Of a stretch of DNA of 64,000 nt, positions 4,784 through 37,703 are shown one piece after another. This DNA comes from Bacteroidota bacterium (GTDB lineage Bacteria > Bacteroidota > Ignavibacteria > UBA10030 > UBA6906): positions 1,489-65,488 of the forward strand of contig DASRUE010000196.1 in assembly GCA_035687895.1 (NCBI GenBank), written 5' to 3'. The notes under the pieces were generated by a model that was not told where the DNA came from, did no database searches, and worked only from the letters and a program-made list of their open reading frames with translations. Both the position numbers and the translations under genes were made by a program. Numbering within the stretch: the first letter of the stretch is position 1; every line of letters starts with the position of its first letter.

Positions 4784-6798
4784 TCAGGGGATTCAAATCA
4801 TTCATGCTTCATTTGAGGAATCGGTCCCTGTTGGGGGTTGACATTGTTCTTGGGGCATTGATTCCCTCTGTAGCACTCTACATCCGAACGGAGAGTCTTA
4901 GCGCCCTGAGCCTCTACGCAACGCCAGTGATTCTTTTTACGGCTGTGGCTCTCGCTGCTAAGGTCATTGTTTTTTTCGTTACCGGACTGTATGCTCAATA
5001 CTGGCGCTACGCAAGTGTTGAAGAACTCATGACACTGCTTCGCGCCACGATGTTAGCCTGGCTCGCTGAGGCCCTGATCTTCTTCGGGTTGCTCATGCCC
5101 TTAGGCATCCTACCTTTTGGTTTTCCACGTTCGGTTGTGGTTCTTGACGGATTGCTTACCCTTGTGGTAGTTGCTGGAGTGCGATTGAGCATTCGTCTCT
5201 TCTTTGCCTTGTACACGAAGAAGGATGAAGGAATGCCCCTCAAGCCGGCGCTGGTGGTTGGGGCGGGTGTTGCCGGAGCAATGATTGTGAAGGAGCTTCA
5301 GTCAAATCAGCAACTAGGTCTCGAGCCTGTCGGGTACATCGACGATGACGTTGCGAAAGCTGGAAAGCGTATTCATGGCGTTGAGGTTCTTGGTGCCTTG
5401 AAGGACCTTCCCGCCATCCTGAATGAACACAAGATTTCAGAAGTGATCATCGCGATGCCAACGGCGCCTGGTAAGGTTGTTCGCGATGTTGTTCAGGCAT
5501 GCAAGGCATCGGGCGTGCGAAGCAAAACTATTCCGGGATTGTTCGAAATACTGAGGGGGACGGCAAAGGTCGCGCAATTCCGGAATATCCAACTCGAGGA
5601 CTTGCTCCGCCGGGGTGCGGTAAAGACGGATACGAAGAAAGTGGTCGGTCTTCTTCATGGTGTTCGCGTGATGGTGACTGGTGCGGGTGGGTCTATCGGC
5701 TCCGAACTCTGCCGACAGATCAGAGATTTCGGTCCTTCCGAGTTGGTTCTCGTGGGTCACGGAGAGAATTCGATCTATGAGATCATGCGCGAACTTCAAG
5801 AAGTTCCCAAGCAGGGACTGAAGGTGCATTCAGTCATCGCCGACATCAGAGACCGTGAGCGAATGGAGCAGGTTTTTGCGAACCACCGGCCGCACATCGT
5901 TTTCCATGCTGCAGCGCATAAGCACGTGCCGCTCATGGAGGCAAATATCCCTGATGCGATTTCGAACAATGTGCTCGGAACAAGAAACCTGATTGATCTT
6001 TCCGAGCGGCATCGTGTCGATCGATTTGTGATGATTTCCAGCGACAAGGCGGTCAACCCGACAAGCATTATGGGCGTGACCAAGAGAATCGCTGAGTTGA
6101 TTGTGCAAGAGGCCGCGTTTCGAACCAAACGGCCGTATGTTGCCGTGCGGTTTGGAAATGTCTTGGGGAGCAGGGGAAGTGTGGTTCCATTAATGAAACG
6201 GCAAATCGAGCTTGGAGGTCCCTTGACGGTCACGCACCCTGAGATGCGTCGGTACTTCATGACCATTCCTGAAGCAGTCCAACTCGTTCTGCAAGCAGCC
6301 ACAATGGGAACCAGCGGCGAGGTATTTGTCCTCGATATGGGTGATCCCATCAAGATCATCGATCTTGCACGAGATCTGATTCGCCTCAGTGGATTGGAAG
6401 AGGGCCGCGACATCGATATCACCTTTACAGGACTGCGGCCGGGCGAGAAGCTCTTTGAGGAACTCTTCTTCGACGGCGACAAAATCGAGCGGACTCACCA
6501 CGAGAAGATCATGGTGTATAGGAACGGTTCCCACTATGTCCATGAACCAGTCGGTACAGAAACCATCACCCATCGGGTTGAAGGTGTCCCAACGGCCGGT
6601 TATGAGAAGCCACTCCGCCTTGACGTGGATACACTTCTCGAGGCAGCACAACAGGGAAGCCTGCACGTTGTTCGCCGCCTGATGAAGAAGCTGGTACCGG
6701 AATACAAGCCACAAGAAGAAAGTCTGGAACCAACGAAATTACAGGCCACTCTATCGGCCGATGGGACTAAAACGACCTCTGTTGCTTTGCCTCGGTAG
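4780..6798 (+). CDS. Polysaccharide biosynthesis protein CapD/WbpM/PglF-like (membrane-anchored UDP-HexNAc 4,6-dehydratase)
   Basis: It has four N-terminal TM helices. A Rossmann region LVVGAGVAGA is followed by a second MVTGAGGSIGSEL, and the SDR-type dehydratase core is present. An ATGA overlap with the upstream gene gives translational coupling. Confidence 0.85.
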   Translation: MIRGFKSFMLHLRNRSLLGVDIVLGALIPSVALYIRTESLSALSLYATPVILFTAVALAAKVIVFFVTGLYAQYWRYASVEELMTLLRATMLAWLAEALIFFGLLMPLGILPFGFPRSVVVLDGLLTLVVVAGVRLSIRLFFALYTKKDEGMPLKPALVVGAGVAGAMIVKELQSNQQLGLEPVGYIDDDVAKAGKRIHGVEVLGALKDLPAILNEHKISEVIIAMPTAPGKVVRDVVQACKASGVRSKTIPGLFEILRGTAKVAQFRNIQLEDLLRRGAVKTDTKKVVGLLHGVRVMVTGAGGSIGSELCRQIRDFGPSELVLVGHGENSIYEIMRELQEVPKQGLKVHSVIADIRDRERMEQVFANHRPHIVFHAAAHKHVPLMEANIPDAISNNVLGTRNLIDLSERHRVDRFVMISSDKAVNPTSIMGVTKRIAELIVQEAAFRTKRPYVAVRFGNVLGSRGSVVPLMKRQIELGGPLTVTHPEMRRYFMTIPEAVQLVLQAATMGTSGEVFVLDMGDPIKIIDLARDLIRLSGLEEGRDIDITFTGLRPGEKLFEELFFDGDKIERTHHEKIMVYRNGSHYVHEPVGTETITHRVEGVPTAGYEKPLRLDVDTLLEAAQQGSLHVVRRLMKKLVPEYKPQEESLEPTKLQATLSADGTKTTSVALPR

Positions 6799-6817
6799 CA
6801 CTCTGAAGAGAACTTGC

Positions 6818-6861
6818 AATCCGCGGGAGACTGCGCATCGTCACCTGCGGATTTGTTTTTT
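6818..6861 (+). terminator. Rho-independent terminator after the dehydratase gene
   Basis: An AATCCGCGGG...CCTGCGGATT stem is followed by TTTGTTTTTT. Confidence 0.6.
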
Positions 6862-6915
6862 CCTCTAAGTGGGAGACTACCTGGCGCAATAAGCCTTGCC
6901 TTTCTTTACTCACCT

Positions 6916-14015: not shown

Positions 14016-15278
14016 ATGCTGGCTGACACGCCGCCGATATTGTCCGAGGTGGAGAACCTGCGTTTTTTTATCCCGCCTGTTTATGGTACACACCTTCTTC
14101 CGCTCCCTTGGCACAGTCCACTTGATGCATGGGGAGATAGTGGCATTTCCTTTATCCCGGTGAAGAGCGGGCTTTCTCGGCACGTTGTTCGATTTATCGA
14201 ATCTGGAGAAAAGAGATTCGCTGTCAAAGAAACCTCCCTGGAAAGTGCACAGCGGGAGTTTGCGAACTATGTGCAACTTGTCAAAAGGGAGATCCCGACC
14301 CTCATTCCTGTTGGCGTTGTTTCCCGTTACGAAGGAACCGAGATTGTCTCGACCAAGGTGGGTCAGCAGCCACAGGTCAGGGACACGGGGTACATAGTCA
14401 CCGAACTGATGGAGAAAGTAATTCCGGATTCGTTTCTGTTCAAGCGCGGGTTCACGAAAGAGAACAGAAATAAGATCTGGGACGCGGTAATCAGGTTGTT
14501 CATCCAACTGCATAGCCGCGGAATCTACTGGGGAGACGCCTCGCTCGCGAACATGCTGATCCGGTTTGAGACGGAAGTCGTTCCCGAGCTTGGCAAGCGG
14601 ACGCTCTTGACTGCCATCTTAGCCGACGCGGAAACAGTCGAAATCCACCCGGCTATCTCCGATTCACTGAGGATGGCAGACGTGGAGTTTTTTCTTGAAT
14701 CCATGTTATGGACGGAAGCGGATCTGCGGGCAAGCGGGATTGTCCGCGACCCGATGATCACGGAGAGAGATCAGGCGTACATTATGGCATCGTACAAAGG
14801 TCGGTTTGCCGTGGAGCTGGAGATTGCCTCCTTTGAACTGGTAACGCACATCGATGTTGACAAACTCCTCGGCAACTTTGACGTAAAGGGGTATGGAAAA
14901 CTGTTGCTCCAGCACATTCAGGAACATAAATGGTATGTCAGCGAGCGAAAAGGACGCGAGGTAACGCTGATTGAGGCGGCGGAGGATTGGTATAAAGAAA
15001 TTTTCAAACCGGTGTGCAAAATCTTCCATGATCAAGGGTTGTTGGAGTTCTTTCCCGACAAGACTGCCTCCAGCCTATATGTGGAGATCATGGAACACAA
15101 ATACTTTATGAGCGAGCGTGAGAAAAAGGATGTCGGTCTCGTGGCTGCACTGGAGGACTACTCTCGGAGATACGCTCAGCATGAGCCGGTGCACATGACC
15201 CTCGGTTCGATTATCAGAGCGTTGACGTCCCTTCTTGGGGGAGGTGACCCACAACGAACGAACATCTATCTTTCTTGA
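14016..15278 (+). CDS. Kinase-fold (Kdo/WaaP/RIO-like) protein with a C-terminal DUF4032-like region containing an internal tandem repeat
   Basis: GIYWGDASLANMLI resembles a kinase catalytic loop. Two ~30-aa repeats are HKWYVSERKGREVTLIEAAEDWYKEIFKP and HKYFMSEREKKDVGLVAALEDYSRRYAQ. The family assignment is from memory and is tentative. Confidence 0.55.
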   Translation: MLADTPPILSEVENLRFFIPPVYGTHLLPLPWHSPLDAWGDSGISFIPVKSGLSRHVVRFIESGEKRFAVKETSLESAQREFANYVQLVKREIPTLIPVGVVSRYEGTEIVSTKVGQQPQVRDTGYIVTELMEKVIPDSFLFKRGFTKENRNKIWDAVIRLFIQLHSRGIYWGDASLANMLIRFETEVVPELGKRTLLTAILADAETVEIHPAISDSLRMADVEFFLESMLWTEADLRASGIVRDPMITERDQAYIMASYKGRFAVELEIASFELVTHIDVDKLLGNFDVKGYGKLLLQHIQEHKWYVSERKGREVTLIEAAEDWYKEIFKPVCKIFHDQGLLEFFPDKTASSLYVEIMEHKYFMSEREKKDVGLVAALEDYSRRYAQHEPVHMTLGSIIRALTSLLGGGDPQRTNIYLS

Positions 15279-15279
15279 A

Positions 15280-15594
15280 ATGATGAGGCCACTGAGGATT
15301 CATCAGGTTGCTCTTGATCGGCTGCATGTTGTATGGGATGATAAGCATGAATCTCAATTCACAACCGAGTATCTGCGGAATAATTGTCCCTGTGCAACCT
15401 GCATCCATGAAAAAGAGGAGGATATCAAGAGCGGGATCTTTTCACTCCCCCTTGCCTCAAAAACCCACCTCGTCAAGATCGACCGTTCCGGCCATAACGC
15501 AATTGTGATTTCCTGGGGGGATGGACACAAGACAGGCATTTACACATGGGACTACCTGCGTTCCCTTTGCCCTTGCGACGATTGCCAGGAGTGA
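15280..15594 (+). CDS. DUF971/COG3536 family small Cys-rich protein (gamma-butyrobetaine hydroxylase N-terminal-like domain)
   Basis: It has two CPC..C motifs, NNCPCATCIHE and LCPCDDCQE. Its ATG lies 2 nt after the upstream stop. The tabled start at 15235 overlaps the upstream gene. Confidence 0.6.
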   Translation: MMRPLRIHQVALDRLHVVWDDKHESQFTTEYLRNNCPCATCIHEKEEDIKSGIFSLPLASKTHLVKIDRSGHNAIVISWGDGHKTGIYTWDYLRSLCPCDDCQE

Positions 15595-17135: not shown

Positions 17136-18685
17136 TGAGGCCATTATCATTTGTAATTCTCGTTATTGTGCTGATCACCCTGATTAGTGGATCAATCGAT
17201 GCCAAAACCCCCGTAAAGGTGACGGAAATAAGAAGTGAACACTCGCCTCTGGTCAATTTTCGCATCATCCTTCGCGCCGGGTCGATTAACGACCCCAAGG
17301 GGAAAGAAGGGCTAAATGCCCTAACTGCCTTCTTGCTTGCCAAGGGAGGAACAAAGGAGCTTACCTACCAGCAGGTTGTTGCAAGTCTCTACCCATGGGC
17401 GGCTTCCATTAACGTGCAGCCGGACAAGGAGATCACGACATTTATTGGCAATGTCCATCGCGACCACCTGGAAGAATTCTACAAGATTTTCTCTGACCTT
17501 CTTCTCAACCCACGTTTCGATCCAGATGATTTCACCAGGAACAAAGATTTAGCCATCAGTTTTTTGGAGAAGAACCTTCGAGGGACGGACGATGAAAACC
17601 TCGGCAAGGAAGCACTTGGCCTCGTAATGTTTGGAAATCATCCTTACGGGACCGCGGATGCCACCGTCCAGGGCTTGAAGTCATCGACGTTGGAGGACGT
17701 GAAGGAATACTATGCGAAAACCTATACGATCGGCACAATGTGGATAGGAATTGCGGGCGGCTACCCCAGGGCATTCGTGGAAACAATGAAGAAGGACTTT
17801 GGCAAACTTCCGGATGGAAAATTTTCTCCTATCTCACTTCCGGAACCGGAGGCCATCAATGGGCTGGAGATTGCCTTCGTTGAAAAGCCGGCTCGCGGCA
17901 CGGCGATCTCGATTGGCCATCCGCTTCCTGTAACACGGAAGGACAAAGATTTTTACGCCCTTCTCGTTGCCAACTCGCACTTTGGCGAGCACCGTACATT
18001 CAACGGTGTTCTCATGAACCGCCTGCGAGGAGATCGCGGATTGAACTACGGCGATTATTCGTATATCGAGAAGTTCACTGGAGGAACCGGCTCCTCGCGG
18101 TTTCCCAATGTGAATACTCCACTACGGCAGCAGTATTTCAGTATTTGGCTAAGGCCGGTCCAACCCGAGAATGCTCATTTTGCGGTGAGAGCTGCGCTAT
18201 TCGAACTGGAGAAGTATGTGAAGGAGGGATTAACTGCAGAGCAGTTTCAGCAGACAAGGAAGTTTGTCTCCAACTACTCAAAGCTTTGGGCCCAAACACT
18301 CGATCGTCGTCTTGGCTACAAGATGGACTCCGAGTTTTATGGGACTGGAGACTACATTGAGAGAATCGACAAGGAGTTGAAGACGTTGACAGTAGCAGAC
18401 GTCAACAGCGCCATCAAGAAATACATCAGCCCGGCGAACCTCAAGGTTGCCATCGTTGCCAATGATGGGAAGAGTCTTATGGACGCAATGGTCTCTAACG
18501 CGCCCTCTCCAATCAACTATCAATCTCCAGTGTCTGAGAATATTCTCGAAGAGGACAAGTTGATATCCAACTATTCACTCTCGATCAACCCAAAAAAAAC
18601 CAAGCTGATACGAGTCCAGCAATTGTTTGAGAACGAGAGTCCTTCGAGAACACTGGGTCGCAAGGACAAAGAGAATATCAGATAG
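17135..18685 (+). CDS. M16 family peptidase partner subunit (no intact HxxEH motif)
   Basis: It has a signal peptide and the M16 fold, and I found no HxxEH motif on inspection. Its start overlaps the upstream stop by 1 nt, a typical paired arrangement. Confidence 0.8.
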   Translation: MRPLSFVILVIVLITLISGSIDAKTPVKVTEIRSEHSPLVNFRIILRAGSINDPKGKEGLNALTAFLLAKGGTKELTYQQVVASLYPWAASINVQPDKEITTFIGNVHRDHLEEFYKIFSDLLLNPRFDPDDFTRNKDLAISFLEKNLRGTDDENLGKEALGLVMFGNHPYGTADATVQGLKSSTLEDVKEYYAKTYTIGTMWIGIAGGYPRAFVETMKKDFGKLPDGKFSPISLPEPEAINGLEIAFVEKPARGTAISIGHPLPVTRKDKDFYALLVANSHFGEHRTFNGVLMNRLRGDRGLNYGDYSYIEKFTGGTGSSRFPNVNTPLRQQYFSIWLRPVQPENAHFAVRAALFELEKYVKEGLTAEQFQQTRKFVSNYSKLWAQTLDRRLGYKMDSEFYGTGDYIERIDKELKTLTVADVNSAIKKYISPANLKVAIVANDGKSLMDAMVSNAPSPINYQSPVSENILEEDKLISNYSLSINPKKTKLIRVQQLFENESPSRTLGRKDKENIR

Positions 18686-18700
18686 AACCACCGATATCCT

Positions 18701-18733
18701 GGGGTGGCGATTCAGTCGCCACCCTTTCCTCTT
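18701..18733 (+). terminator. Rho-independent terminator after the M16 pair
   Basis: A GGGTGGCGA..TCGCCACCC stem is followed by TTTCCTCTT. Confidence 0.55.
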
Positions 18734-18833
18734 AGGCTTCCATTTCTCGTTTTCCACGCTTTAAGAAGATCCTGCCTAACCCATTGATATAGATGGTTGT
18801 CCAGACGACTTCAAGTGATCGTTAAGAAAGTTC

Positions 18834-18862
18834 TTGCATATTGTTTGAGAATTGGCTAATTA
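18834..18862 (+). promoter_or_regulatory. Candidate promoter TTGCAT-N17-TAATTA
   Basis: It lies about 50 nt upstream of the hybrid kinase ATG. Confidence 0.3.
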
Positions 18863-18910
18863 CGTATCAGTCATCAATTCCCTCCAATTTGGCCAATTTC
18901 TGGAGCATCC

Positions 18911-21340
18911 ATGCCCGAGAGTATTCAGTTCGAAAGCATTCTTGAGAGCATTAGCGGTGGGTTCTTCGCTCTCGACAATGAATTCAGAATCACATATTGG
19001 AACCACGCTGCGGAGGCAGGGACGGGGCTTTCGGCAGCAGAGGTGCTTGGGAAGAACGTGTTTGAGGTATTCCCCAATGCAAAAGATGCTCCACTTGGTG
19101 AAAAGTACCGACTGGCAATGGCGACGAAGACATTCCAAAGTATCGAATCTGCCTACAAGGACGAACGGTTCGAGGCTTGGTATGATGTGCGCATCTATCC
19201 GGCTGAAAGTGGGGGCTTGTCCGTGTTCTTTCAGGACATCACCGACAGGAAAAGGGACCAGCGCCAAAAGGAAATCCTTGTAGAGATCTCCCACGCCGTC
19301 AATTCCTCGCGACACCTCGATGAGTTATGCGTACGAGTTGCAGAAAAGATTGCACTCTTGTTTGAAGTTTCCTCCAAGTTCATCTGTATCTATTTATTTG
19401 ATCCTCGAGGGAACGAGATTAGGCTCGTTGCGCCGGCGCTCTTTGACGCTGACTTCCCGCAAGAAAGAGTGCATCAGCCGGTGCAGCCAACCGCGGTATT
19501 CCTTGCGGCAAAGGCCGCGTTCTCGAAGGAAACGATTCTCTCCGATCAGATCACTGAAAGCACCGTTGCCGGTCTGTTTCTTGACGAAATGAATGAACGA
19601 AAACTTAAGACCCTGATTGTCCTGCCTCTCGTGGTGCAAGGTGAGTTACAGGGAGTGATGGAAGTGCTCAGCATCAAAGACAGGGAGTTCGTGCAGAGTG
19701 ACCTCGAGACTCTCTCCGTAGTAACGAATGAGCTTGCGGGTGGGATGAGTAGGAAACGCCTGATGGATGAACTCAGGATGAAGAATGTGGAGCTCGAAAC
19801 GCAGACACAGAAGGCACTCGATGCCAGCGATACGCTCAAGAAGTTTCTTGCTACCTTCAGCCACGAGCTTCGCTCGCCGTTGAATTCGATCATTGGATTT
19901 TCGGAGCTCCTGACTACGCAGTTCAGTGATCTTCCCGCCGAATCGGTCCAGGAATTCATGAAGAACATCAACATGAGCGGGAGGCATTTGCAGCAAATCA
20001 TCAACGACATTCTGGACCTTTCCAAAATCGAAGCGGGGAAATTGGAACTTCATATCGCCAGCTACCCGATGTCATACTTCAAGGAAAGCATCGAACGGGT
20101 GCTCGCGTCGGACATTGGGGGAAAAGCCGTTCAACTGGAACTGGCGTTCTCCCTTGAGTTTGATGATATCGTGGTCGACCAGACTCGCTTCAAGCAAATC
20201 CTCATAAACCTTGTGTCGAATGCTATCAAGTTCAGCAATCGAGGGGCGAAGGTCGTCGTCCGTTCGGAGCGGATAGGCAACGATATCCAGTTCACTGTCC
20301 AGGACTCTGGCGTAGGCATGAGGCCTGAGGAAGTTGCCGGGTTGTTCAAGCCCTTCAAGCAGGCGGCAAGCGGGAAGGAGATGAACCGCCAGGGGATCGG
20401 CCTTGGGTTGACCATTGCCAAGAAGCTTGTAGAGTTGCACGGTGGTTCTATTTGGATTGAGAGCGAATGGGGGAAGGGCACCGTGGTGTCGTTCAAGATC
20501 CCCATGATTATTGATGCGACTTCCGAGCAGGTGTTGCAGGCAGGAATGCTCCTGGATGCGTTGCAGCGAGAGAACAAACCACTCGACCCGAACGAAAAAC
20601 CGCTTGCGCTCATCATTGAGGATGCACCGCAGGCAAGCGAGTTATTGAGAATGCATATCGAGTCTGCAGGATATAGAGTGGAGATCGCCCGCGACGGCGC
20701 ACAAGCAGTGGATATGGCCAAGCGGCTTCATCCGAGTGTTATTACACTTGATCTGCTGCTCCCCGTAAAGGACGGCTGGCAAGTGATGAAAGAACTTAAG
20801 CGACATCCCCTGTGCAAACATATCCCTATCATCATTGTTTCCATTATTGATGAGAAGAACCTCGGATTTAGCCTGGGTGCTGTGGACTATTTTGTCAAAC
20901 CCGTGAACAAAGAAGACCTGCTCCAGGCGTTGGATCGCGTCCACCTTGTACCACGCCAGAACAACAGGAGACCGTCGGTTCTCGTCATTGATGATGACCG
21001 CGCGGCAACCGACCTCATCCAGATAATTCTGGAAAATGAAGGCTACCAAGTATTGAAGGCGTTCCAAGGAAAGGACGGTGTCGAGATCGCTGCTCGTGAG
21101 CGACCAGACCTTATTATTCTCGACCTGATTATGCCCGAAGTATCAGGGTTCAACGTGGCTTATCAGTTGAAGCAGATACCAGCGACACGGTCGATACCCA
21201 TTATCATTCTGACATCAATGGAGATTGACTCCGATACGCAGTCGCAACTTGGAACCTACGTTTCTGGCCTTATGAGCAAGTCCACATTCACTAAGAAAGA
21301 TCTTCTTAGGGAGATTAGCATTATTGACCACCCAAGGTAG
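18911..21340 (+). CDS. Hybrid sensor histidine kinase/response regulator (PAS-GAF-HisKA-HATPase-REC-REC)
   Basis: It has an N-terminal PAS-like region and a GAF-like region. The H-box is FSHELRSPLNSIIGF, with G-boxes DSGVGM and GIGLGLTI. Two receiver domains follow (LALIIEDAP...ITLDLLLPVKDG and VLVIDDDRA...IILDLIMPEVSG). Confidence 0.85.
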   Translation: MPESIQFESILESISGGFFALDNEFRITYWNHAAEAGTGLSAAEVLGKNVFEVFPNAKDAPLGEKYRLAMATKTFQSIESAYKDERFEAWYDVRIYPAESGGLSVFFQDITDRKRDQRQKEILVEISHAVNSSRHLDELCVRVAEKIALLFEVSSKFICIYLFDPRGNEIRLVAPALFDADFPQERVHQPVQPTAVFLAAKAAFSKETILSDQITESTVAGLFLDEMNERKLKTLIVLPLVVQGELQGVMEVLSIKDREFVQSDLETLSVVTNELAGGMSRKRLMDELRMKNVELETQTQKALDASDTLKKFLATFSHELRSPLNSIIGFSELLTTQFSDLPAESVQEFMKNINMSGRHLQQIINDILDLSKIEAGKLELHIASYPMSYFKESIERVLASDIGGKAVQLELAFSLEFDDIVVDQTRFKQILINLVSNAIKFSNRGAKVVVRSERIGNDIQFTVQDSGVGMRPEEVAGLFKPFKQAASGKEMNRQGIGLGLTIAKKLVELHGGSIWIESEWGKGTVVSFKIPMIIDATSEQVLQAGMLLDALQRENKPLDPNEKPLALIIEDAPQASELLRMHIESAGYRVEIARDGAQAVDMAKRLHPSVITLDLLLPVKDGWQVMKELKRHPLCKHIPIIIVSIIDEKNLGFSLGAVDYFVKPVNKEDLLQALDRVHLVPRQNNRRPSVLVIDDDRAATDLIQIILENEGYQVLKAFQGKDGVEIAARERPDLIILDLIMPEVSGFNVAYQLKQIPATRSIPIIILTSMEIDSDTQSQLGTYVSGLMSKSTFTKKDLLREISIIDHPR

Positions 21341-21364
21341 AAACAAGGCTTGATTTTTATTTTC

Positions 21365-21393
21365 TTGACAATTGAGCTCCAGTGATGTATATT
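21365..21393 (+). promoter_or_regulatory. Sigma70-type promoter TTGACA-N17-TATATT
   Basis: It matches the consensus perfectly and lies 54 nt upstream of the 21447 ATG. The SD is AAAAGAGGGG. Confidence 0.5.
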
Positions 21394-21446
21394 GAATCAG
21401 GTAAATCGAGAAAAACATCCCTATCGGAAAAGAGGGGCTAGTCACT

Positions 21447-22055
21447 ATGACATACAAGAAACCATTGAGCGTCGGTCAAGTAGCAGAAATCTGTTGCGTC
21501 AGCAAGAAGACCGTGCTGAACTGGATTTACGATGGGGCGCTTAAGGCATTCACAACCTACGGCGGTCATTATCGGGTGTGGCCCGTCAATGTCAAGAAAT
21601 TTCTTGATTCAACCGGGATGGATATTGATTTTGAGTACGTAGACGAGAGGATAACACACATTCTCATCATTGATGACGATGCTGACTACTCCCAAATGCT
21701 CAAGAGTGCGATCAGCACTGAATTACCCGGCGCCGAAATCACGGCAACGGATGACGGGTACGAGGGACTAATGCTCATTGGTGAGATCAAGCCACAGTTG
21801 GTGATTCTCGACATCAAAATGCCGAAGATTGATGGTTTTCAGGTGCTGGACCTTCTCAAGACAAGAAAGATTGATCACGACATGAAGGTACTCGTCATAA
21901 CGGGATACCTGGATGAGGGTACGAAGAAGCAATTAGCTGGCACTATTGCGGATCACTGGATGGACAAGCTGGCCGACATCAATGGGATGATCAAGACCAT
22001 AGTCTCATTTGTCCGATCAGACAAGCCCGTATTCCTGAATGGCTCAAACAACTGA
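21447..22055 (+). CDS. Response regulator with an N-terminal excisionase/MerR-type HTH and a C-terminal receiver domain
   Basis: LSVGQVAEICCVSKKTVLNWIYDGAL matches HTH_17. The receiver is ILIIDDDADYS...VILDIKMPKIDG...VLVITGY. Confidence 0.75.
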   Translation: MTYKKPLSVGQVAEICCVSKKTVLNWIYDGALKAFTTYGGHYRVWPVNVKKFLDSTGMDIDFEYVDERITHILIIDDDADYSQMLKSAISTELPGAEITATDDGYEGLMLIGEIKPQLVILDIKMPKIDGFQVLDLLKTRKIDHDMKVLVITGYLDEGTKKQLAGTIADHWMDKLADINGMIKTIVSFVRSDKPVFLNGSNN

Positions 22056-22102
22056 CCTTGGGACAAGCAACAGATATCTACAGAAAAGAGGATGTTCTTG
22101 TT

Positions 22103-22378
22103 ATGAAGCAACAGGATCTCGATGAGCACTCGGTTCAGGTCGAAAACCTCAAGGCCGGTATTCGGGAGATATCCCACGAGATCAACAATCCGCTTGGCGT
22201 TATGCGCATGGCCGCCTACTTCCTGGAGGTAACAAATCCGCCCGAGGACAAAAAGACACACTATTTCAAAGTCCTGAACGAGAGCATCGACAAGATTGAA
22301 AAGTGCCTCGAACAGCTTAAAATACTCCGCGAGAATCCCTCAGCTGCATCTGTTCACCCACCCCTTCAGGATACCTGA
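22103..22378 (+). CDS. Stand-alone HisKA/DHp-like protein (H-box only, no ATPase domain)
   Basis: It has an EISHEINNPLGVM H-box embedded in predicted helices. It is 91 aa. AAGAGGA sits 10 nt upstream of the ATG. Confidence 0.5.
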   Translation: MKQQDLDEHSVQVENLKAGIREISHEINNPLGVMRMAAYFLEVTNPPEDKKTHYFKVLNESIDKIEKCLEQLKILRENPSAASVHPPLQDT

Positions 22379-22489
22379 GATACTGCCGACCTTATGCCGA
22401 CGCGTCCTTCGTGCACGGGAACCAACGCCGCACATATTACGTACATATTAGCAGCCTAGTCGGCTCACGTTGCGAGGCCAGAGACAATC

Positions 22490-23926
22490 ATGGAACGACG
22501 TTCGCTCATCATATACTTGGTTCTGGCAATAGTCCTTGCCGGATGTACTCGAGAACAGAAGATTACCACCTCATCCCCTGAGGCGTTGCGATGCTATAAC
22601 GAAGGCGTTGACCGGTGGAAGAACTTCTATTATCAAGAGGCAAAATCGGTTCTTGACTCCGCTATCTCATTAGACTCAACGTTCGCTATGGCGTGGGCAC
22701 GGCTGGCACTGGTTGATGAAGGGATGAGAAATGAAGCTCAGTCGAAGCTGCACATAGAACGCGCCAGACGTTATTCCAGCAATGCGTCCCGGCGGGAGCA
22801 GCTTTTCATTAACATGTGGTACCATAAGATCAATTATACCTTCAAAGAGGCGGTAACGGCGGCTGATTCATTAATAGCCCTCTCTCCGGAGGACGCCGAA
22901 GCACACGCCTTCCGGGGAATCATGTATGAGGAAGCGAAGGACTTCGAGGCGGCCATTCGCTCGTATGAGCGGGCGACCAAGGTGGACACCGGCTACGCCC
23001 CTGCAGTCATGTCGCTTGGCTACGCGTATTCCACACTGGGGGAGCAAAGCAAAGCCATTGCGCAGATGAAGCGTTACATTCGTATGGCGCCAACCGCCGC
23101 AGATCCACGTGCAAGCTACGCGGATTTGCTGCTCCGCGTGGGGAGGTACGAAGAGGCTCTCTCACAATACACCAAATCGCTTGAGCTCAAGCCGGACTAC
23201 TGGTACTCCATCAATCAGATTGGCAATGTATATATTATCCAGGGGCGTCTACGCGAGGCGGAAGAACAATTCCACAAAGGGCTGACACTCCTGTTGCAGA
23301 GCCAGCAACTCGAGTCTTCCCATCTCTCTGTTGATGCCACTTTGAATGTTCTGCGCGGCGACTATCCACGAGCGATAGAGCAGTACATCCGGGCCCTTAC
23401 GATTGATTCGACAAACAGCGGACCTGCGTACGGCCTGGTAAACGCCTTCATCCAGATGAAGAAATTCAAAGAAGCGGATGCAACCATCAGCCGGATCAGG
23501 GTGGAATTGGATCGCCGTAACCTCGGTGAGTCGCAGGCAATGTTGGGGTTCTTTCTGGCACGCGCGAGGTTCTTAACGGCACAAGGACAACTTATGGAGG
23601 CACTGGCGGTATGTGATTCTGCGCTCGACCATTCCTCACCACTCACTCGTGGAGTCGTTTATCGTCAGGTGGCGGAGATCAGGCTTGAGCAGCGTCAGTA
23701 TGAGGGTGCATTCGACGCCTGCGAGGAGGCGCTCCGTGCGAATCCCAATAACCCCGATGCGTTGCTTACGCTCATGAAGGTGTACCATGCAAAAGGCGAC
23801 CTCCGAATGACGCACGAGATAGGCGGAAGGTTGCTTGAGTTCTGGAAGAATGCGGACGCGGATTTCAGGTATCTCGGCGACGTGAAGAAGATGCTTGCTG
23901 GAAACCGTTCGGGTGTGTCCGCTTAG
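22490..23926 (+). CDS. TPR-repeat lipoprotein
   Basis: It has a lipobox LAGC after the signal peptide, followed by multiple 34-aa TPR-like repeats. Confidence 0.75.
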   Translation: MERRSLIIYLVLAIVLAGCTREQKITTSSPEALRCYNEGVDRWKNFYYQEAKSVLDSAISLDSTFAMAWARLALVDEGMRNEAQSKLHIERARRYSSNASRREQLFINMWYHKINYTFKEAVTAADSLIALSPEDAEAHAFRGIMYEEAKDFEAAIRSYERATKVDTGYAPAVMSLGYAYSTLGEQSKAIAQMKRYIRMAPTAADPRASYADLLLRVGRYEEALSQYTKSLELKPDYWYSINQIGNVYIIQGRLREAEEQFHKGLTLLLQSQQLESSHLSVDATLNVLRGDYPRAIEQYIRALTIDSTNSGPAYGLVNAFIQMKKFKEADATISRIRVELDRRNLGESQAMLGFFLARARFLTAQGQLMEALAVCDSALDHSSPLTRGVVYRQVAEIRLEQRQYEGAFDACEEALRANPNNPDALLTLMKVYHAKGDLRMTHEIGGRLLEFWKNADADFRYLGDVKKMLAGNRSGVSA

Positions 23927-24032
23927 TGCGAACGAACACCTCTTTCCGACTTTGTAACTTCTGCAAGATTTCTGTACATTATTCACGCAGGGCACATCCG
24001 GGCACAATTTTCCTCTCAACCTCAGCTTCTCA

Positions 24033-25130
24033 ATGGGTTTCAATTGTGGTATCGTCGGGCTTCCGAACGTAGGGAAGTCTACTCTCTTCAATGCCATCAC
24101 GGCGGCGGGCGCTGAGGCGGCGAACTACCCCTTCTGCACAATCGATCCGAACGTTGGCGTAGTGGTCATTCCCGATCAGCGTATCGATGGGCTTGTCCGG
24201 ATATACCAGCCGCCCAAGGTGGTGCCGTCAACCATCGAGTTCGTAGATATTGCCGGCCTCGTCAAAGGAGCCAGCAAAGGAGAAGGCCTGGGAAATCAGT
24301 TTCTTTCTCATATCCGCGAGGTGGATGCCATTGCTCACGTTGTTCGGTGTTTCGATGACTCCAATGTTGTGCACGTGGACGGGAATGTCAATCCGAGGCG
24401 GGATATCGAGGTGATCGAAGCGGAACTGATCTTTAAGGATCTCGACACGGTTGAAAAGAAACTGAGCGAGACGCAACGGAAGGCAAAGACCGGCGACAAG
24501 AAGATGAAGGCAGAGGCCGATCTTTACACTCGGGTACGGGATCATCTCCTCTCAGGGCGGTTGGTCCGCTATCTCTCCATTGAGAATGAGGATGACGTCC
24601 TATGGATGCGCGATCTCCATCTATTGACAAATAAACCCGTGATGTACGTCTGCAACGTGCACGAGAGAGACGTCGCCTCCGAGATTGCTTACGTTCAGGC
24701 CGTACGTGAAATTGCGGCGAAGGAGGGGGCAAAAGTGGTAACCGTAAGTGCTGCTGTGGAGGCGGAAGTGGCCGAGCTGCCGACTGGCGACAGGAGGGGG
24801 TTCCTGGAGGGACTGGGTATGAAGGAGTCCGGACTCGATAAGGTGGTACGTGAAGGATACGATTTGCTCCACCTGATCACATTCTTCACTGCTGGTCCCA
24901 AAGAGGTGCATGCATGGACCGTCCGGAAGGGTGCAACTGCCCCCCAGGCAGCCGGAGTGATCCACTCAGACTTTGAAAAGGGCTTCATCCGGGCTGAGAT
25001 CATGAAATACGAGGATCTTGTCCGCCTTGGCTCTGAACAGGCGGTGAAGGACGGAGGCCTTCTGCACATCGAAGGGAAGGAATACGTCGTGGAAGATGGT
25101 GACATTGTCCATTTCAGATTTAATGTTTGA
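24033..25130 (+). CDS. ychF: Redox-regulated ribosome-associated ATPase YchF (Obg-family GTPase)
   Basis: It has GIVGLPNVGKSTLFNA (G1) and a YchF-type TGS C-terminal domain. It is 365 aa. Confidence 0.9.
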   Translation: MGFNCGIVGLPNVGKSTLFNAITAAGAEAANYPFCTIDPNVGVVVIPDQRIDGLVRIYQPPKVVPSTIEFVDIAGLVKGASKGEGLGNQFLSHIREVDAIAHVVRCFDDSNVVHVDGNVNPRRDIEVIEAELIFKDLDTVEKKLSETQRKAKTGDKKMKAEADLYTRVRDHLLSGRLVRYLSIENEDDVLWMRDLHLLTNKPVMYVCNVHERDVASEIAYVQAVREIAAKEGAKVVTVSAAVEAEVAELPTGDRRGFLEGLGMKESGLDKVVREGYDLLHLITFFTAGPKEVHAWTVRKGATAPQAAGVIHSDFEKGFIRAEIMKYEDLVRLGSEQAVKDGGLLHIEGKEYVVEDGDIVHFRFNV

Positions 25131-26076: not shown

Positions 26077-26143
26077 ACCATCCGGTTGACCGAATAACCG
26101 AGACACTTTGCTTTCGCAAACATATCCACGGAGAATCGGATCT

Positions 26144-28411
26144 ATGGCTTTTCTGGACTCTGTTTTTGCCCCTGCCGGTCGTCTCTTGATCATTGTCTCC
26201 TGTTGGTGTTGCTTTACAACTCAAATCGTTGCCCAGACCTCTGGCTCCATTCGTGGGAAGGTGACCGATAAGAAAACCGGCGACTCACTTCCTTTCGCCA
26301 ATGTCGTTGTGAAAGGGACAAACGCCGGAGCATCAACGAATATAGACGGCTCATTCGAGATCCGCGGTCTTGAACCCGGCACCTACACGATTGTGGTTTC
26401 CCTGGTGGGCCATGAAACCCGGCAGATTACAGGACTGAAAGTAACCGCCGGTGATGCCACGACTCAGGACGTGTCGCTTGGTGATGCCAGTGTTCAAGTG
26501 GGTGACATCACCGTATATGGGGCGTCATTAAGAGGAGAAAAAGTAACGGATGCCCCGGCCGCCGTCTCCGCTCTTTCGCCCGAGGAGATCAAACTGAACT
26601 CAGTTAGCGGCCAGGTGCCGAAGCTTCTCGAGAACCAGCCGGGGGTGGATATTGCGCAGAGCGGTGTGAACGACTTCAATGTAAACACGCGGGGCTTTAA
26701 CAGCTCGCTTAATCGCCGTCTTCTTGTATTGCTTGATGGCAGAGACCTTGCTGTGGCGTTTCTCGGTTCGCAGGAGTGGAACGGTCTTTCCGTTCCCGTC
26801 GAGGATCTTGGCAAACTCGAACTTATCCGTGGTCCGGGCTCCGCCCTTTATGGTGCCAATGCCTTCAACGGGGTCATTAACATTCTCACGCCGCGCCCCA
26901 GAGATATCGCCGGCGGCAAAGTGACGATAGCGGGTGGAGAGAAAAACACCGCCAGGACTGACATTCGTTACGCAGGCTTCAGCGACGCATGGTCGTACAA
27001 GGTCAACGTGGGAAGATTCCAGGGTGACACCTGGAGTGTCTCAAGGACAATGTGGACTGGTGGTCAGATCGGTGTTTTCGAGTACTCCGGTTTCAATCCA
27101 GTTCTGAATATGGAGGTCGTGGAGGTCAACCGTGGAAAGGTCGCATCGACGTATGGTTCCGGTCGTCTGGACTACGCCTTTGCTGATGGCGCAAACGGCA
27201 CGATTGAAGGAGGACTCACGCAGGTGGAAAACGAAATCCTAGTGACCGGCATTGGGCGGGTGCAGGTGCCGAAGGCGGTGAAGTCTTGGGGGCGCGCAAG
27301 TTACAGCGATGAGCATGTGTTTGTGCAGGCATGGGTGGCGGGGAGAAATTCGTTGAAGCCGCAGGTGTCGCTGTCAACAGGCCTACCTCTCGAGGAGAAA
27401 TCATTGTTAGGCCAGGCGGATGTGCAATACCGGTTTTCTGAACTCGAAGACAGACTCTATGTCATCCTGGGAGCCGCACACAAGTATCAGTTCGTTGACA
27501 CGAAAGGAACGCTGACCTTGGCGGCGCATCACGACAATCTCAGTGGTCTTTACGGGCAGTTCGAATACAAGGTAACCGATCAAATAAAGGCAATTGCCGC
27601 CGGACGGTGGGATCGCAGCACTCTTCACGCCAGCCAGTTCTCACCAAAGGTAGCGATGGTGTGGTCGCCATTCGTAGGACAGTCATTCCGCGCAACGTAC
27701 AACAAGGCATTCCAGGCTCCAAACTATTCAGAGCTGTTCCTGAATGTAAAACACCCGATTCGTAATCTCGTCTATTTCGGGAATGAGGATCTGATTGTTG
27801 AGAAGATCACGGGGTATGAAGTGGGGTACAAGGGTGTATTTGAGAACGCTGTGTTCGTGACCTTGGATGGCTATTATAACCAGCTGACGGACTTCATCAC
27901 AGATTTGGCGCCGAGTGTCAACCCTAAATACCCAGGTCAAATCACATTGCCTGGAGAAACCATTACCCGAACAGTATGGTCCTATGGAAATGCTGGCAAG
28001 GTGAATGAATACGGGTTCGAGCTGGGAGTCAACTATTACGTCTCATCTGAGTGGCAGTTGAATGCCAACTATGCGTTCTTCGACTTCAAGGTGAAGGAGC
28101 AAAGCGCGAATGACGTTCTTCTTCCCAACGCCCCAAAGCACAAGGTGAACGGCGGAATCACGTACAGGAATGACACGTTCGAGTTCGGCCTGAGCGGAAA
28201 GTACGTTCCCCGGTTCGATTGGGCGGCGGGGATCTTCAAAGGACCGATTCTAGCGTATGCACTGTTTAACCTGAATGCGTCCTACAAGTTGGCCCAAAAC
28301 CTCACCCTGGGTTTGAATATTACAGACCTGCTGGATCGTGAACACTATCAGATCTTCGGTGGCTCGTTGATCGGTAGAAGAGCGATCATGAGCATGACAG
28401 CGACATTCTAA
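26144..28411 (+). CDS. TonB-dependent outer-membrane receptor with an N-terminal carboxypeptidase-regulatory-like domain
   Basis: It has a signal peptide, then a CarbopepD-reg-like domain (GKVTD...NIDGSFEIRGLEPGTYTIVVS), a plug domain, a beta-barrel and a C-terminal aromatic residue. Confidence 0.85.
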   Translation: MAFLDSVFAPAGRLLIIVSCWCCFTTQIVAQTSGSIRGKVTDKKTGDSLPFANVVVKGTNAGASTNIDGSFEIRGLEPGTYTIVVSLVGHETRQITGLKVTAGDATTQDVSLGDASVQVGDITVYGASLRGEKVTDAPAAVSALSPEEIKLNSVSGQVPKLLENQPGVDIAQSGVNDFNVNTRGFNSSLNRRLLVLLDGRDLAVAFLGSQEWNGLSVPVEDLGKLELIRGPGSALYGANAFNGVINILTPRPRDIAGGKVTIAGGEKNTARTDIRYAGFSDAWSYKVNVGRFQGDTWSVSRTMWTGGQIGVFEYSGFNPVLNMEVVEVNRGKVASTYGSGRLDYAFADGANGTIEGGLTQVENEILVTGIGRVQVPKAVKSWGRASYSDEHVFVQAWVAGRNSLKPQVSLSTGLPLEEKSLLGQADVQYRFSELEDRLYVILGAAHKYQFVDTKGTLTLAAHHDNLSGLYGQFEYKVTDQIKAIAAGRWDRSTLHASQFSPKVAMVWSPFVGQSFRATYNKAFQAPNYSELFLNVKHPIRNLVYFGNEDLIVEKITGYEVGYKGVFENAVFVTLDGYYNQLTDFITDLAPSVNPKYPGQITLPGETITRTVWSYGNAGKVNEYGFELGVNYYVSSEWQLNANYAFFDFKVKEQSANDVLLPNAPKHKVNGGITYRNDTFEFGLSGKYVPRFDWAAGIFKGPILAYALFNLNASYKLAQNLTLGLNITDLLDREHYQIFGGSLIGRRAIMSMTATF

Positions 28412-28483: not shown

Positions 28484-28807
28484 CTACGCGTTCATTCCGA
28501 GCTTTTTCTTTGCCTCGTCAGACATCCTTACGGGGGACCATGCAGGTTCCCACACAATTCTCACGTCTGCGTCCTTCACGCCGGGGACCTTTAGTACCCG
28601 GTTTCGGACGTTTTGTGAGATCATCCCACTCATCCCACAGCCAGGGGAGGTCAATGTCATTTTCACACCCACCCAGTCGTCAATGATCTTCACATCATAG
28701 ATAAGGCCCAAATCCACGAGATTCACTGGGATCTCAGGGTCGTAGCACTCCTTGAGCGCGTCCATGATCTCCGTTTCAGTGGGGATTGTCGTTTTCGGTT
28801 CTTCCAT
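28484..28807 (-). CDS. SufT/MIP18-family (DUF59) Fe-S cluster assembly protein
   Basis: The sequence is ALKECYDPEIPVNLVDLGLIYDV...LTSPGCGMSGM, which has the conserved DUF59 cysteine. Confidence 0.7.
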   Translation of the reverse strand: MEEPKTTIPTETEIMDALKECYDPEIPVNLVDLGLIYDVKIIDDWVGVKMTLTSPGCGMSGMISQNVRNRVLKVPGVKDADVRIVWEPAWSPVRMSDEAKKKLGMNA

Positions 28808-28868
28808 TGCTGCTCCTTCGATGTTCACCTGTTTAAAGATAGCCTTTCACTGGGGGAGTTGCAACTCA

Positions 28869-29363
28869 TCATTGCTTGTGCCGGGGGAACCAGAGTTCCC
28901 TTAAAATAAGATAGCCCATCACACAATAACAAACAAACAGAGACACGCCCGAGAGAAGTACAAGCCAACTAAACAGGGGCGAAACAAAGCGGATTAGCAC
29001 GATCCCGCCAAATGTTGTCACTACTGCAATGAAGGGTTCAACGATGAGGAACTTCTTCACACCATCCGAGACAAGAGAGGAAAAATAGAAAATCCCCCCC
29101 AGGGCGAGGAACACCAGAGAAAGAGAAAGGATGTGGTTGTGAAGGAAGACATACATCTCATTGGCCGATTTGGCATACTTCATCTCCTGGATGGTTTGCA
29201 CATTTGCGGAGCCGAGGAATTGCTCCTGTATCCCTTGCGATGACAGGGACGTCGTATGCTCGACGAAGAAGAGTCCGATAAGATAGCCAGCGCTCATCAC
29301 CGCGATGAACAAAGTGAGAAAGAGCTTGAGCGTAGCATCGGCCTCTCGCAATCGGAATGTCAT
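28869..29363 (-). CDS. Hypothetical 4-TM inner-membrane protein
   Basis: It has four hydrophobic helices. An ATGA overlap with the upstream FMN-binding gene places them in one operon. Confidence 0.55.
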   Translation of the reverse strand: MTFRLREADATLKLFLTLFIAVMSAGYLIGLFFVEHTTSLSSQGIQEQFLGSANVQTIQEMKYAKSANEMYVFLHNHILSLSLVFLALGGIFYFSSLVSDGVKKFLIVEPFIAVVTTFGGIVLIRFVSPLFSWLVLLSGVSLFVCYCVMGYLILRELWFPRHKQ

Positions 29364-29968
29364 TGTGTCTCCAATGGTGTGTGAGGCAGGCGATCCCTAA
29401 CCGCTGCCAACACGGAAAGGACCTTCTTGACGCCAAACGTCACCGACCGAGCCGAAATCGTTGCGCCGCTGATATTCTTGATTTCCTTGCCTGGGCGGAG
29501 TTCCTCGCCCGGTCTTCTTCCGAAGAACTGCTTCTGCCATGATTTATAGCGCACTTCTCCGCCGTACGCTTCCCGATAGGCGAGAATTTCAAGATCCTTC
29601 ACCACGAGAGAGGAGTCAACAGCCACGATATACGTAATCAGTTGATCCTTCCCTTTGACATTGTCCACCACAGCATATCCCGCGGCAGCGTTTCCTTTGA
29701 ACGATGCGAGAACAACGAGCGTATCCCCTCCCCACCGTTGATTGCAAAGAATAAAGACCGCCTCTTTGTCTTGAGACAAAAGGGGGATGGTGACCAACAC
29801 TGCCTTGGTTTCCTTTCCAAACATTCGCTGAACGGACGCCTGTGCCTGGTCCAATTCACGTTCGGTGACTCCCACATCTGGCCATGCAGCGATGGAGAGA
29901 AACATTGCGGCAACCGCAAGGGTCGCTGCTCGTGTGATGCCCTTAGAAAAAATAATAGCCGATGCCAA
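29360..29968 (-). CDS. FMN-binding domain (FMN_bind) protein, predicted periplasmic, with a flavinylation motif
   Basis: It has a signal peptide. NISGATISARSV matches the [S/T]GA[S/T] covalent-FMN motif of NqrC, RnfG and PplA. Confidence 0.7.
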   Translation of the reverse strand: MASAIIFSKGITRAATLAVAAMFLSIAAWPDVGVTERELDQAQASVQRMFGKETKAVLVTIPLLSQDKEAVFILCNQRWGGDTLVVLASFKGNAAAGYAVVDNVKGKDQLITYIVAVDSSLVVKDLEILAYREAYGGEVRYKSWQKQFFGRRPGEELRPGKEIKNISGATISARSVTFGVKKVLSVLAAVRDRLPHTPLETQ

Positions 29969-33845: not shown

Positions 33846-34082
33846 CTAAAAAGTGAATACGGAGATAGTGCTTGCCAGCAGGTTGTTGATCCCAAGCCGG
33901 GTGTTACAGACTTCGCAAATCACGTTGCCGTTACCCCTATTGAGACAGCGAATGACGGCATTTTCACAAAATCCAAGTTCACGAAGTCGTATACAGACGT
34001 CGGGGTGCGATTGGATTTCCCTAATGCGGACAGGGCGCCCAAGAGGTGCGTTAGCAAGCGTGAATGACGAACTTGGGTTCAT
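33846..34082 (-). CDS. feoA: Second FeoA family protein (tandem paralog)
   Basis: The sequence is LGRPVRIREI...LRELGFCENAVIRCLNRGNGNVICEVCNTRLGI. The start was set to the internal ATG (MNPSSS) 4 nt after the fur stop. Confidence 0.7.
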   Translation of the reverse strand: MNPSSSFTLANAPLGRPVRIREIQSHPDVCIRLRELGFCENAVIRCLNRGNGNVICEVCNTRLGINNLLASTISVFTF

Positions 34083-34086
34083 ATCG

Positions 34087-34530
34087 CTATGCTCTCTTCT
34101 TACATTTGGAACAGATTCCAAAAATCTGAAGTGTTGAACTTTGTGCCTTGAAACTCTTCTCGTCGCACACATCATCTTGAATCCGCTCGAGTTTTTCGTT
34201 TACGAATTCGATAATGTCTCCACAGTCCAGGCAAATAAGATGGTGGTGATGCGGACGCCCGAAGGCTTTCTCGTATCGAGATGTATTTTCGGCAAACCTG
34301 TACTTGGAGACGAGGCCGCATTCCTGAAGCACCTCCAGAGTATTGTATACAGTTGCCTTAGAGACTTTGATGCCATTCGTGATTAACCGGTAGTAGAGTC
34401 CCTCGACATCAAAGTGTCCCTGGCTTTCCAATACTGCGTCTAAGATCGCAAAACGCTCGGGAGTCGAGCGCTGCTTTCCGCTTGCCTTCAGATGGGTTGT
34501 GAGTATCTCGTGCGCTGCGTGAACGTCCAT
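34087..34530 (-). CDS. fur: Fur family transcriptional regulator
   Basis: It has a winged-helix N-terminus, HHHHLICLDCG, and C-terminal CxxC metal sites. Confidence 0.85.
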   Translation of the reverse strand: MDVHAAHEILTTHLKASGKQRSTPERFAILDAVLESQGHFDVEGLYYRLITNGIKVSKATVYNTLEVLQECGLVSKYRFAENTSRYEKAFGRPHHHHLICLDCGDIIEFVNEKLERIQDDVCDEKSFKAQSSTLQIFGICSKCKKRA

Positions 34531-37120: not shown

Positions 37121-37322
37121 TTTGTGCGCAGTTCCCAGCTTTTCGAGAAAGCTATGTATCCACATGGTCAAATCTGCCGTTAAGGTAAAACTTACATGGC
37201 ATAAGCTCTCGAAATCCCCCAGTTTAACTCGTTTTAGGCCCTCCTTTCTGGCTTAACCTTTGCGCAAATCATGACTTACAAATAAGAACCTCTCGAATGT
37301 CCACATTGTCAGAAGGTTGACT

Positions 37323-37703
37323 ATGAGAATCTTGGTTGTTGACGACAATAAGGGTTTCCTCAACGTCATGGGTGACTTGCTGCGCGACTATGGTTACGAG
37401 GTTTTTCTTGCGGAGGATGGAAAGCAGGCCCGGGAGTTCTTGGAAGGAGAGAAGGTCGACGTTATCGTATCCGATGTTTTTATGCCGACGCTTGACGGGA
37501 CTCGGTTCCACAGTTACGTTCGTGAGTTTACGGACTTTCAGGACATTCCTTTCATCTTCATCTCAGGGTACGATGACGAGCACACACGAAATGTAGTAGT
37601 TGATTCCAAGATCGATTTCTTCATCAGCAAAACAGCGCCGGTGGAGACGCTCGTATCTCTGATTGAAAGCCTGAAACCAACAAAGCAGCTAAAGTCCGTC
37701 TGA
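37323..37703 (+). CDS. Single-domain response regulator (PilH/PilG-like position at head of pilus cluster)
   Basis: It has ILVVDDNKGF and VIVSDVFMPTLDG. AGAAGG sits 6 nt upstream of the ATG. The tabled start is a TTG 6 nt upstream. Confidence 0.8.
   Translation: MRILVVDDNKGFLNVMGDLLRDYGYEVFLAEDGKQAREFLEGEKVDVIVSDVFMPTLDGTRFHSYVREFTDFQDIPFIFISGYDDEHTRNVVVDSKIDFFISKTAPVETLVSLIESLKPTKQLKSV

Follow-up and report, generated by a model that had tools for sequence, protein, structure and literature searches.

How does a hybrid histidine kinase that carries two receivers and no histidine phosphotransfer (Hpt) domain pass its signal on to a separate DNA-binding regulator? The question is raised by a locus in a 64,000-nucleotide stretch of contig DASRUE010000196.1 from a Bacteroidota bacterium (here called the window), where the gene of such a kinase is followed by that of a response regulator and then by a third gene, encoding a 91-amino-acid (aa) protein with little more than a dimerisation and histidine phosphotransfer (DHp) hairpin. 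A sequence-only reading of this DNA had taken the three genes for a candidate multistep phosphorelay, and had seen in the small protein either a Spo0B-like transfer protein or a phosphatase or decoy for the neighbouring receivers. The list of open reading frames (ORFs) and Pfam bore out the three genes, all on the plus strand, and the domain order of both larger proteins; the interpretation was in turn supported by the HisKA match, the hairpin model, the invariant His and the gene linkage of the small protein. What emerges is a conserved and uncharacterised module of four genes, one of which encodes a candidate for a minimal phosphotransfer protein acting as a dimer. With middling confidence, we propose a His-Asp-His-Asp phosphorelay made up of the four genes, where a DHp-only dimer would take the part of Spo0B or ChpT. 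The first three genes and their putative phospho-sites are:

18911-21340, plus strand: soluble hybrid histidine kinase, 809 aa, PAS-GAF-HisKA-HATPase_c-REC1-REC2 (Pfam)
19862-19864: His318 of the kinase
20750-20752: Asp614 of the first kinase receiver, REC1
21122-21124: Asp738 of the second kinase receiver, REC2
21447-22055, plus strand: response regulator with reversed domain order, 202 aa, HTH_17 then Response_reg (Pfam)
21810-21812: acceptor Asp122 of the regulator
22103-22378, plus strand: small DHp-only (HisKA-only) protein, 91 aa, a single helical hairpin (Pfam HisKA, AlphaFold2)
22175-22177: H-box His25 of the small protein, motif H-E-I-N-N-P-L-G

The hybrid kinase and its neighbouring regulator

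In the kinase, Pfam recognises PAS (residues 6-115), GAF (134-276), HisKA (309-376, E 4.8e-18) and HATPase_c (423-532, E 1.7e-28) domains, together with two Response_reg stretches (E 6.6e-41). No membrane segment lies ahead of the PAS domain, and the kinase is cytoplasmic. Its orthologues are 71-75% identical over their full length, and eight out of eight share an invariant H318, the REC1 residues E570, D571, D614, S644 and K663, and the REC2 residues D694-696, D738, T768 and K790. Judged by these active-site residues, both receivers are catalytically competent, as a phosphorelay demands.

The regulator carries an excisionase/MerR-type helix-turn-helix (HTH) domain, HTH_17, at residues 7-53 (32.5 bits, cut-off 27), ahead of a Response_reg domain at residues 72-184 (61.4 bits, cut-off 30.2), and its AlphaFold2 model shows a canonical receiver fold (pLDDT 82.5). 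We found at least 344 homologues, and the 120 listed are all at least 70% identical and all combine HTH_17 with a receiver. The HTH is nearly invariant, and D76/D77, D122 and K174 are kept; across orthologues, all three receivers (REC1, REC2 and that of the regulator) retain the acidic pair, the acceptor Asp, the Thr/Ser and the Lys. On sequence grounds, the protein has both the acceptor Asp and the output domain (HTH_17) of a terminal regulator, as expected at the end of a phosphorelay. MerR/excisionase-type response regulators, such as the 'merR family' regulator whose receiver is PDB 3CNB, likewise join a receiver to an HTH of the MerR/excisionase class and have a similar receiver fold. For proteins with HTH_17 before the receiver, we found neither a full-length structure nor a characterised member.

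The Hpt model (PF01627) matched neither the kinase nor the regulator nor the small protein, and scanning a further 20 small to mid-sized ORFs of the window revealed no Hpt either. A hybrid kinase that has two intact receivers but lacks Hpt requires a partner carrying a His, which is a first argument for a relay at this locus.

The DHp-only protein and its family

Could the small protein be this partner? It had been described as essentially an H-box helix hairpin, and the description held. HisKA (PF00512) is the sole significant Pfam match of its ORF (31.6 bits, cut-off 26.9, E 1.7e-7). The longest, mechanically defined frame opens at TTG 22058 and would encode 106 aa; since the alignment of 39 homologues of 91-105 aa begins at ATG 22103, we take the product to be 91 aa long, as first read. 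Its AlphaFold2 model, built on the family alignment, is an antiparallel hairpin of a helix (residues 3-44), a turn and a second helix (48-77) at pLDDT 88. When this model was compared with the PDB using Foldseek, most of the top ten rows were DHp domains, from the kinases VC2136, SrrB and KinB and from LvrB, a hybrid response regulator of Leptospira, and HK853 is also among the best matches; all have weak E-values, as is to be expected when only two helices are compared. The closest solved sequences to the family profile are the DHp domains of KinB and ThkA, and the H-box is an ordinary NtrB/KinB-type HisKA motif. Against NCBIfam we obtained only sub-threshold partial matches, to NtrB-type kinases, and the protein is therefore without a curated family.

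The small protein has no Pfam match to HATPase_c, the catalytic and ATP-binding (CA) domain, and is thus not a classical sensor histidine kinase. It stops 66 residues past the His and the next gene begins 111 nt further on, leaving no room for a CA domain. We considered that the ORF might be a decayed kinase fragment and rejected this idea, since its length and stop position are kept family-wide and, together with the 111-nt gap, mark it as a real, selected gene. Membership in the Spo0B, ChpT or Hpt families was also rejected for want of a family-model match: neither the Spo0B helical-domain model (SPOB_a) nor the ChpT-type transferase model gave a Pfam match at E<=1, and the AlphaFold2 model has no C-terminal domain. 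'Spo0B-like', as the protein had been called, is therefore apt for the proposed mode of action and not for its ancestry.

An exhaustive hidden Markov model (HMM) search of 1.84 billion cluster representatives gave 564 matches. The best ~30 clusters (at 50% identity) are all 75-105 aa long and make up the small-protein family; a second CA-less family of 215-234 aa ranks next, followed by ordinary kinases. Profile scans with the small-family alignment returned, among the matches listed, three close relatives from genome contigs and ordinary kinases only from metagenome contigs, the pattern H[ED]INNPLG being generic in both cases.

Phosphotransfer weighed against other roles

The family follows the motif H-[ED]-[ILV]-x-[NST]-P-L-G. 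An acidic residue stands at His+1 in 27 of 30 cluster representatives, whereas position His+4 (Asn in 20, Ser in five, Thr in three, Gly in two) is more variable than the His. Gly at His+7 is found in 29/30 and Arg at His+10 in 30/30. The helix-1 face past the His (Gly+7, Arg+10, Met+11, Ala+12, Tyr+14), which on kinases is the receiver docking site, is as conserved as the H-box and differs at nearly every position from the DHp of the neighbouring kinase; both features argue for a relay. The His itself, whose conservation the sequence-only reading had made decisive, is invariant in 29 aligned homologues and in all 30 representatives. This too speaks for phosphotransfer, because the His cannot be bypassed for phosphotransfer, yet is not essential for HisKA phosphatase activity (PMC12632262).

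In the relay that we propose, the cytoplasmic PAS-GAF hybrid kinase would autophosphorylate at His318, and the phosphoryl group would move to one of its own receivers, at Asp614 or Asp738. It would then be accepted by His25 of the 91-aa protein, whose DHp hairpins are predicted to pair into a homodimeric four-helix bundle, and handed to Asp122 of the HTH_17-REC regulator, which would in turn change transcription; a candidate target is its own operon, including the gene of the lipoprotein described below. With a full HisKA H-box (acid at His+1, Asn/Thr/Ser at His+4), transfer by the small protein would probably be reversible, and, with the kinase off, the protein may also help the regulator to lose its phosphate faster.

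There are precedents for such a chain, which lend the relay further support. Spo0B and ChpT are DHp-type transfer proteins (PMC9981736, PMC3433190), and the receiver RedD phosphorylates RedE, a HisKA protein without autophosphorylation (PMC2755868). In Bacillus sporulation (Spo0B) and in the Caulobacter CckA-ChpT-CtrA pathway, the His of a DHp-like hairpin takes up phosphate from an intermediate receiver and carries it to the DNA-binding regulator at the end of the chain, which is the role that we propose here as well. Like both proteins, the small protein would have no ATP-driven autophosphorylation and, like ChpT, it is paired with an Hpt-less hybrid kinase; unlike them, it has no C-terminal CA-like alpha/beta domain (a degenerate CA in ChpT). 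The RedCDEF 'four-component' system of Myxococcus xanthus (PMC2755868), likened by its parts list, has the same elements: a kinase, a dual receiver, a non-autophosphorylating HisKA protein to which a receiver passes phosphate, and a terminal regulator. In our locus, by contrast, kinase and dual receiver are one fused protein, the HisKA protein is without any HATPase domain, and the terminal regulator has a DNA-binding domain. Hpt proteins (PF01627), such as LuxU, Ypd1 and the ShpA of ShkA-ShpA-TacA, fill the same slot after a hybrid kinase and before a regulator, and ShkA also has two receiver-like domains. However, Hpt is a monomeric four-helix bundle, whereas the small protein belongs to another family and is a HisKA hairpin expected to need dimerisation. 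Formally, it falls among the 'incomplete histidine kinases' of P2CS (HisKA without HATPase), a bookkeeping class without assigned function, whereas the members of the small family agree in length, share an invariant His and keep the same operon partners. Work on Hik36/Hik43 was set aside as not relevant, since it concerns a CheA-like kinase.

Several points weigh against the relay. Our Hpt scan covers the three signalling proteins and 20 other ORFs of the window, and an Hpt protein could be encoded elsewhere in the genome. Kinase-fused receivers can be purely regulatory, and the kinase might phosphorylate the regulator directly. No functional DHp-only transfer protein turned up in a phrase-based literature search, and Spo0B and ChpT both keep a CA-like domain. 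Finally, the HisKA phosphatase motif, E/D-x-x-N/T, is largely kept in the small family, with the acid at His+1 in 27/30 and Asn, Thr or Ser at His+4 in 28/30, and kinases without a CA domain act as phosphatases in vitro, as shown by HK853 on its own regulator (PMC7005713).

These last two points make a dedicated phosphatase a serious rival. The kinase would then phosphorylate the regulator directly, and the DHp-only dimer, like a transmitter phosphatase detached from its kinase, would dephosphorylate the regulator via this motif and set its off-rate. RedE, too, acts as a phosphatase on RedF (PMC2755868), and co-transcription with the regulator suits a stoichiometric modulator. Nevertheless, it is the His, dispensable for HisKA phosphatase activity (PMC12632262), that is absolutely invariant, while the phosphatase-specific His+4 varies and is Gly in 2/30. 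Moreover, the two competent and almost invariant receivers of the Hpt-less kinase would be left without a downstream partner. We therefore consider a dedicated phosphatase unlikely, if still the rival to be taken most seriously. Sequence does not separate phosphotransfer from a phosphatase or decoy role, and of these phosphotransfer is favoured. The relay and phosphatase readings would both fit a bifunctional protein that has the two activities, as in RedE.

The complete HisKA H-box, with the His+1 acid needed for autophosphorylation chemistry (27/30), also bears on a split kinase. In such an arrangement, a CA domain, belonging to the adjacent hybrid kinase or encoded at another locus, would phosphorylate the free DHp dimer in trans, and the dimer would then phosphorylate the regulator, one ATP-binding domain serving two DHp outputs. 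The sequence-only reading had held that a DHp-only protein cannot autophosphorylate, which stands, and had not considered trans-phosphorylation by a separate CA domain, which is possible in principle. The separated DHp and CA domains of EnvZ do reconstitute kinase activity in vitro. However, the cluster has no free-standing CA gene, and once more no role would remain for the fused receivers, so that we regard a split kinase as very improbable.

The conserved cluster, its promoter and related families

Is the small protein tied to the kinase and the regulator in other genomes? The features that bear on this question are:

22490-23926, plus strand: tetratricopeptide-repeat (TPR) lipoprotein, 478 aa, with signal peptide and lipobox (LAG-C), the fourth cluster gene (TPR families, Pfam)
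21365-21393, plus strand: sigma-70-type promoter TTGACA-17-TATATT for the regulator/small protein(/TPR) unit, 11/12 consensus positions
21401-21417, plus strand: conserved 17-nt block GTAAATCGAGAAAAACA directly 3' of the -10 element (spacer alignment)

We fetched gene neighbourhoods via the small protein (loci L001-L010) and independently via the regulator (L088, L089, L090, L163). The block of four genes was present in another 11 distinct contigs, all from uncultured Ignavibacteria-like Bacteroidota (the source names being uncultured Bacteroidota/Ignavibacteria metagenome-assembled genomes, MAGs), everywhere in the order hybrid kinase, HTH_17-REC regulator, small H-box protein and TPR protein. 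The co-occurrence on which the sequence-only reading had hinged was found throughout: the small gene directly follows the HTH_17-REC gene in every locus, including 4/4 of those retrieved via the regulator. In two of the latter, L089 and L163, the small protein has diverged so far that no Pfam match is recorded for it, yet it keeps the His. Its start lies between -4 and +47 nt from the regulator stop codon. Upstream, the cluster is flanked by a UvrD/PD-(D/E)XK helicase in some loci and by SAICAR synthase or M16 peptidases in others; downstream, by an AMP-binding enzyme or YchF. Since the flanks differ between loci, the four genes travel as a unit. Both this persistence in 11 further loci and the position of the small gene, close to the regulator gene and behind a conserved promoter, argue for the relay.

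The TPR gene lies directly downstream of the small gene in every locus examined and encodes a product of ~480 aa, with a signal peptide and the lipobox Cys present in 8/8 sequences inspected. The regulator may have this lipoprotein as an output or target. The gene had been missed by the earlier reading, and it places an exported TPR lipoprotein beside a cytoplasmic sensor kinase in one cluster.

Compared with the window, the kinase is 71-75% identical, the regulator 59-77%, the small protein 54-61% (28% in L089) and the TPR protein 47-55%. In L089, the small protein (6627-6866) is 79 aa long with the H-box CHDIRNSIG, while the kinase and regulator are 75% and 73% identical to those of the window; its presumed partners thus evolve far more slowly than the small protein. 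This rate would suit a decoy or inhibitor, in which the hairpin heterodimerises with the kinase DHp or sequesters a receiver without chemistry, damping or insulating signalling, and so would the fact that the small protein is a dimerisation and receiver-docking module only. On the other hand, a passive binder would not need an invariant His and H-box, and the helix-1 residues differ from the kinase DHp at most core and specificity positions, which argues against heterodimerisation; paralogous DHp domains normally homodimerise specifically. We hold a decoy to be quite improbable, and both this and the trans-phosphorylation reading to be less likely than a dedicated phosphatase.

The consensus promoter previously noted after the kinase matches 11 of 12 positions. 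In the window sequence alone, the pattern occurs at four sites against 4.4 expected in shuffles, which is not above chance. In orthologous kinase-regulator spacers, which are otherwise unalignable, the -35 CTTGAC[A/T] and the 17-nt spacing are nevertheless kept in 10/10, with a -10 element of TATATT in nine and TATCTT in L089. Because it is kept in all ten divergent spacers, we consider it a genuine conserved promoter. No terminator-like site lies between the small gene and the TPR gene (22378-22490), so that the regulator and the small protein, and probably also the TPR gene, are under their own promoter.

The 17-nt block that follows the -10 element is also conserved in 10/10 spacers (GTAAATC..G.AAAACA). 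It has no other copy in the window, where a search for further copies gave only chance-level matches, and an Rfam scan of 18600-24100 gave no match. Part of the block, TCGAGAAAA, is an imperfect inverted repeat of TTTTCTTGA (21360-21368), which overlaps the -35 element; in locus L009 the two arms are perfectly complementary. The block could be an operator or part of a leader, and with its repeat it may serve as an operator in autoregulation, bound by the nearly invariant HTH_17 domain.

The second CA-less family, of ~225 aa, combines a receiver-like N-terminus without an acceptor Asp with a C-terminal HisKA hairpin. Its members are:

L011, 5608-6282
L012, 5596-6282
L091, 7001-7675
L092, 1857-2570
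L093, 5951-6640
L094, 7001-7678

In 6/6 loci, all from Ignavibacteria-like MAGs, the gene lies directly upstream of a multi-PAS hybrid kinase of 1074-1328 aa, which is Hpt-less in L011 and L012, the two that were scanned. As the six loci are syntenic, we count them as one further conserved association. That a second CA-less family adjoins another hybrid kinase in the same bacterial group is a last argument for the relay.

A third CA-less type, of 225-231 aa, has a genuine receiver fused to HisKA and occurs in MAGs of Pseudomonadota, Bdellovibrionales and Dadabacteria, where it adjoins ComF-like phosphoribosyltransferase and DsbA-like genes and not a kinase:

L013, 5587-6282
L064, 5560-6237
L044, near 1319

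Elsewhere in the window, a single-domain receiver protein of 128 aa (37317-37703; Response_reg E 6e-22) precedes a 623-aa ORF (37756-39627), and the two may be another signalling pair. The gene of a 420-aa DUF4032/weakly kinase-like protein (14016-15278) overlaps by 44 nt the start of that of a 119-aa protein with a GBBH-like_N domain (15235-15594); a DUF4032 gene also lies upstream of the kinase cluster in L090. Fur, FeoA, FeS_assembly_P and FMN_bind genes (33846-34530 and 28484-29968, minus strand) stand downstream of a TonB-dependent receptor (26108-28411), and parts of this iron-related neighbourhood are also found next to the cluster in L005 and L088.

Taken together, CA-less DHp proteins may constitute a third structural class of histidine phosphotransfer protein, beside the monomeric Hpt bundles and the Spo0B/ChpT pseudo-kinases. 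We put this forward tentatively, with less assurance than the relay itself. The class would come in two forms, the 91-aa hairpin and the ~225-aa pseudo-receiver-DHp paralogues, and would link Hpt-less hybrid kinases to regulators across an uncultured Ignavibacteria-like lineage.

If the relay holds true, the small protein would be the smallest known relay protein of the Spo0B/ChpT type, and a bare DHp dimer would suffice to carry phosphate from receiver to receiver, as a minimal dimeric relay module. The loss of an ATP-binding domain would then be one evolutionary route from kinase to relay protein, and part of the pool of 'incomplete histidine kinases' would gain a testable function. Such a small, orthogonal relay part would be useful in engineered phosphorelays. 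For this poorly studied, uncultured group of bacteria, it would explain how Hpt-less hybrid kinases signal.

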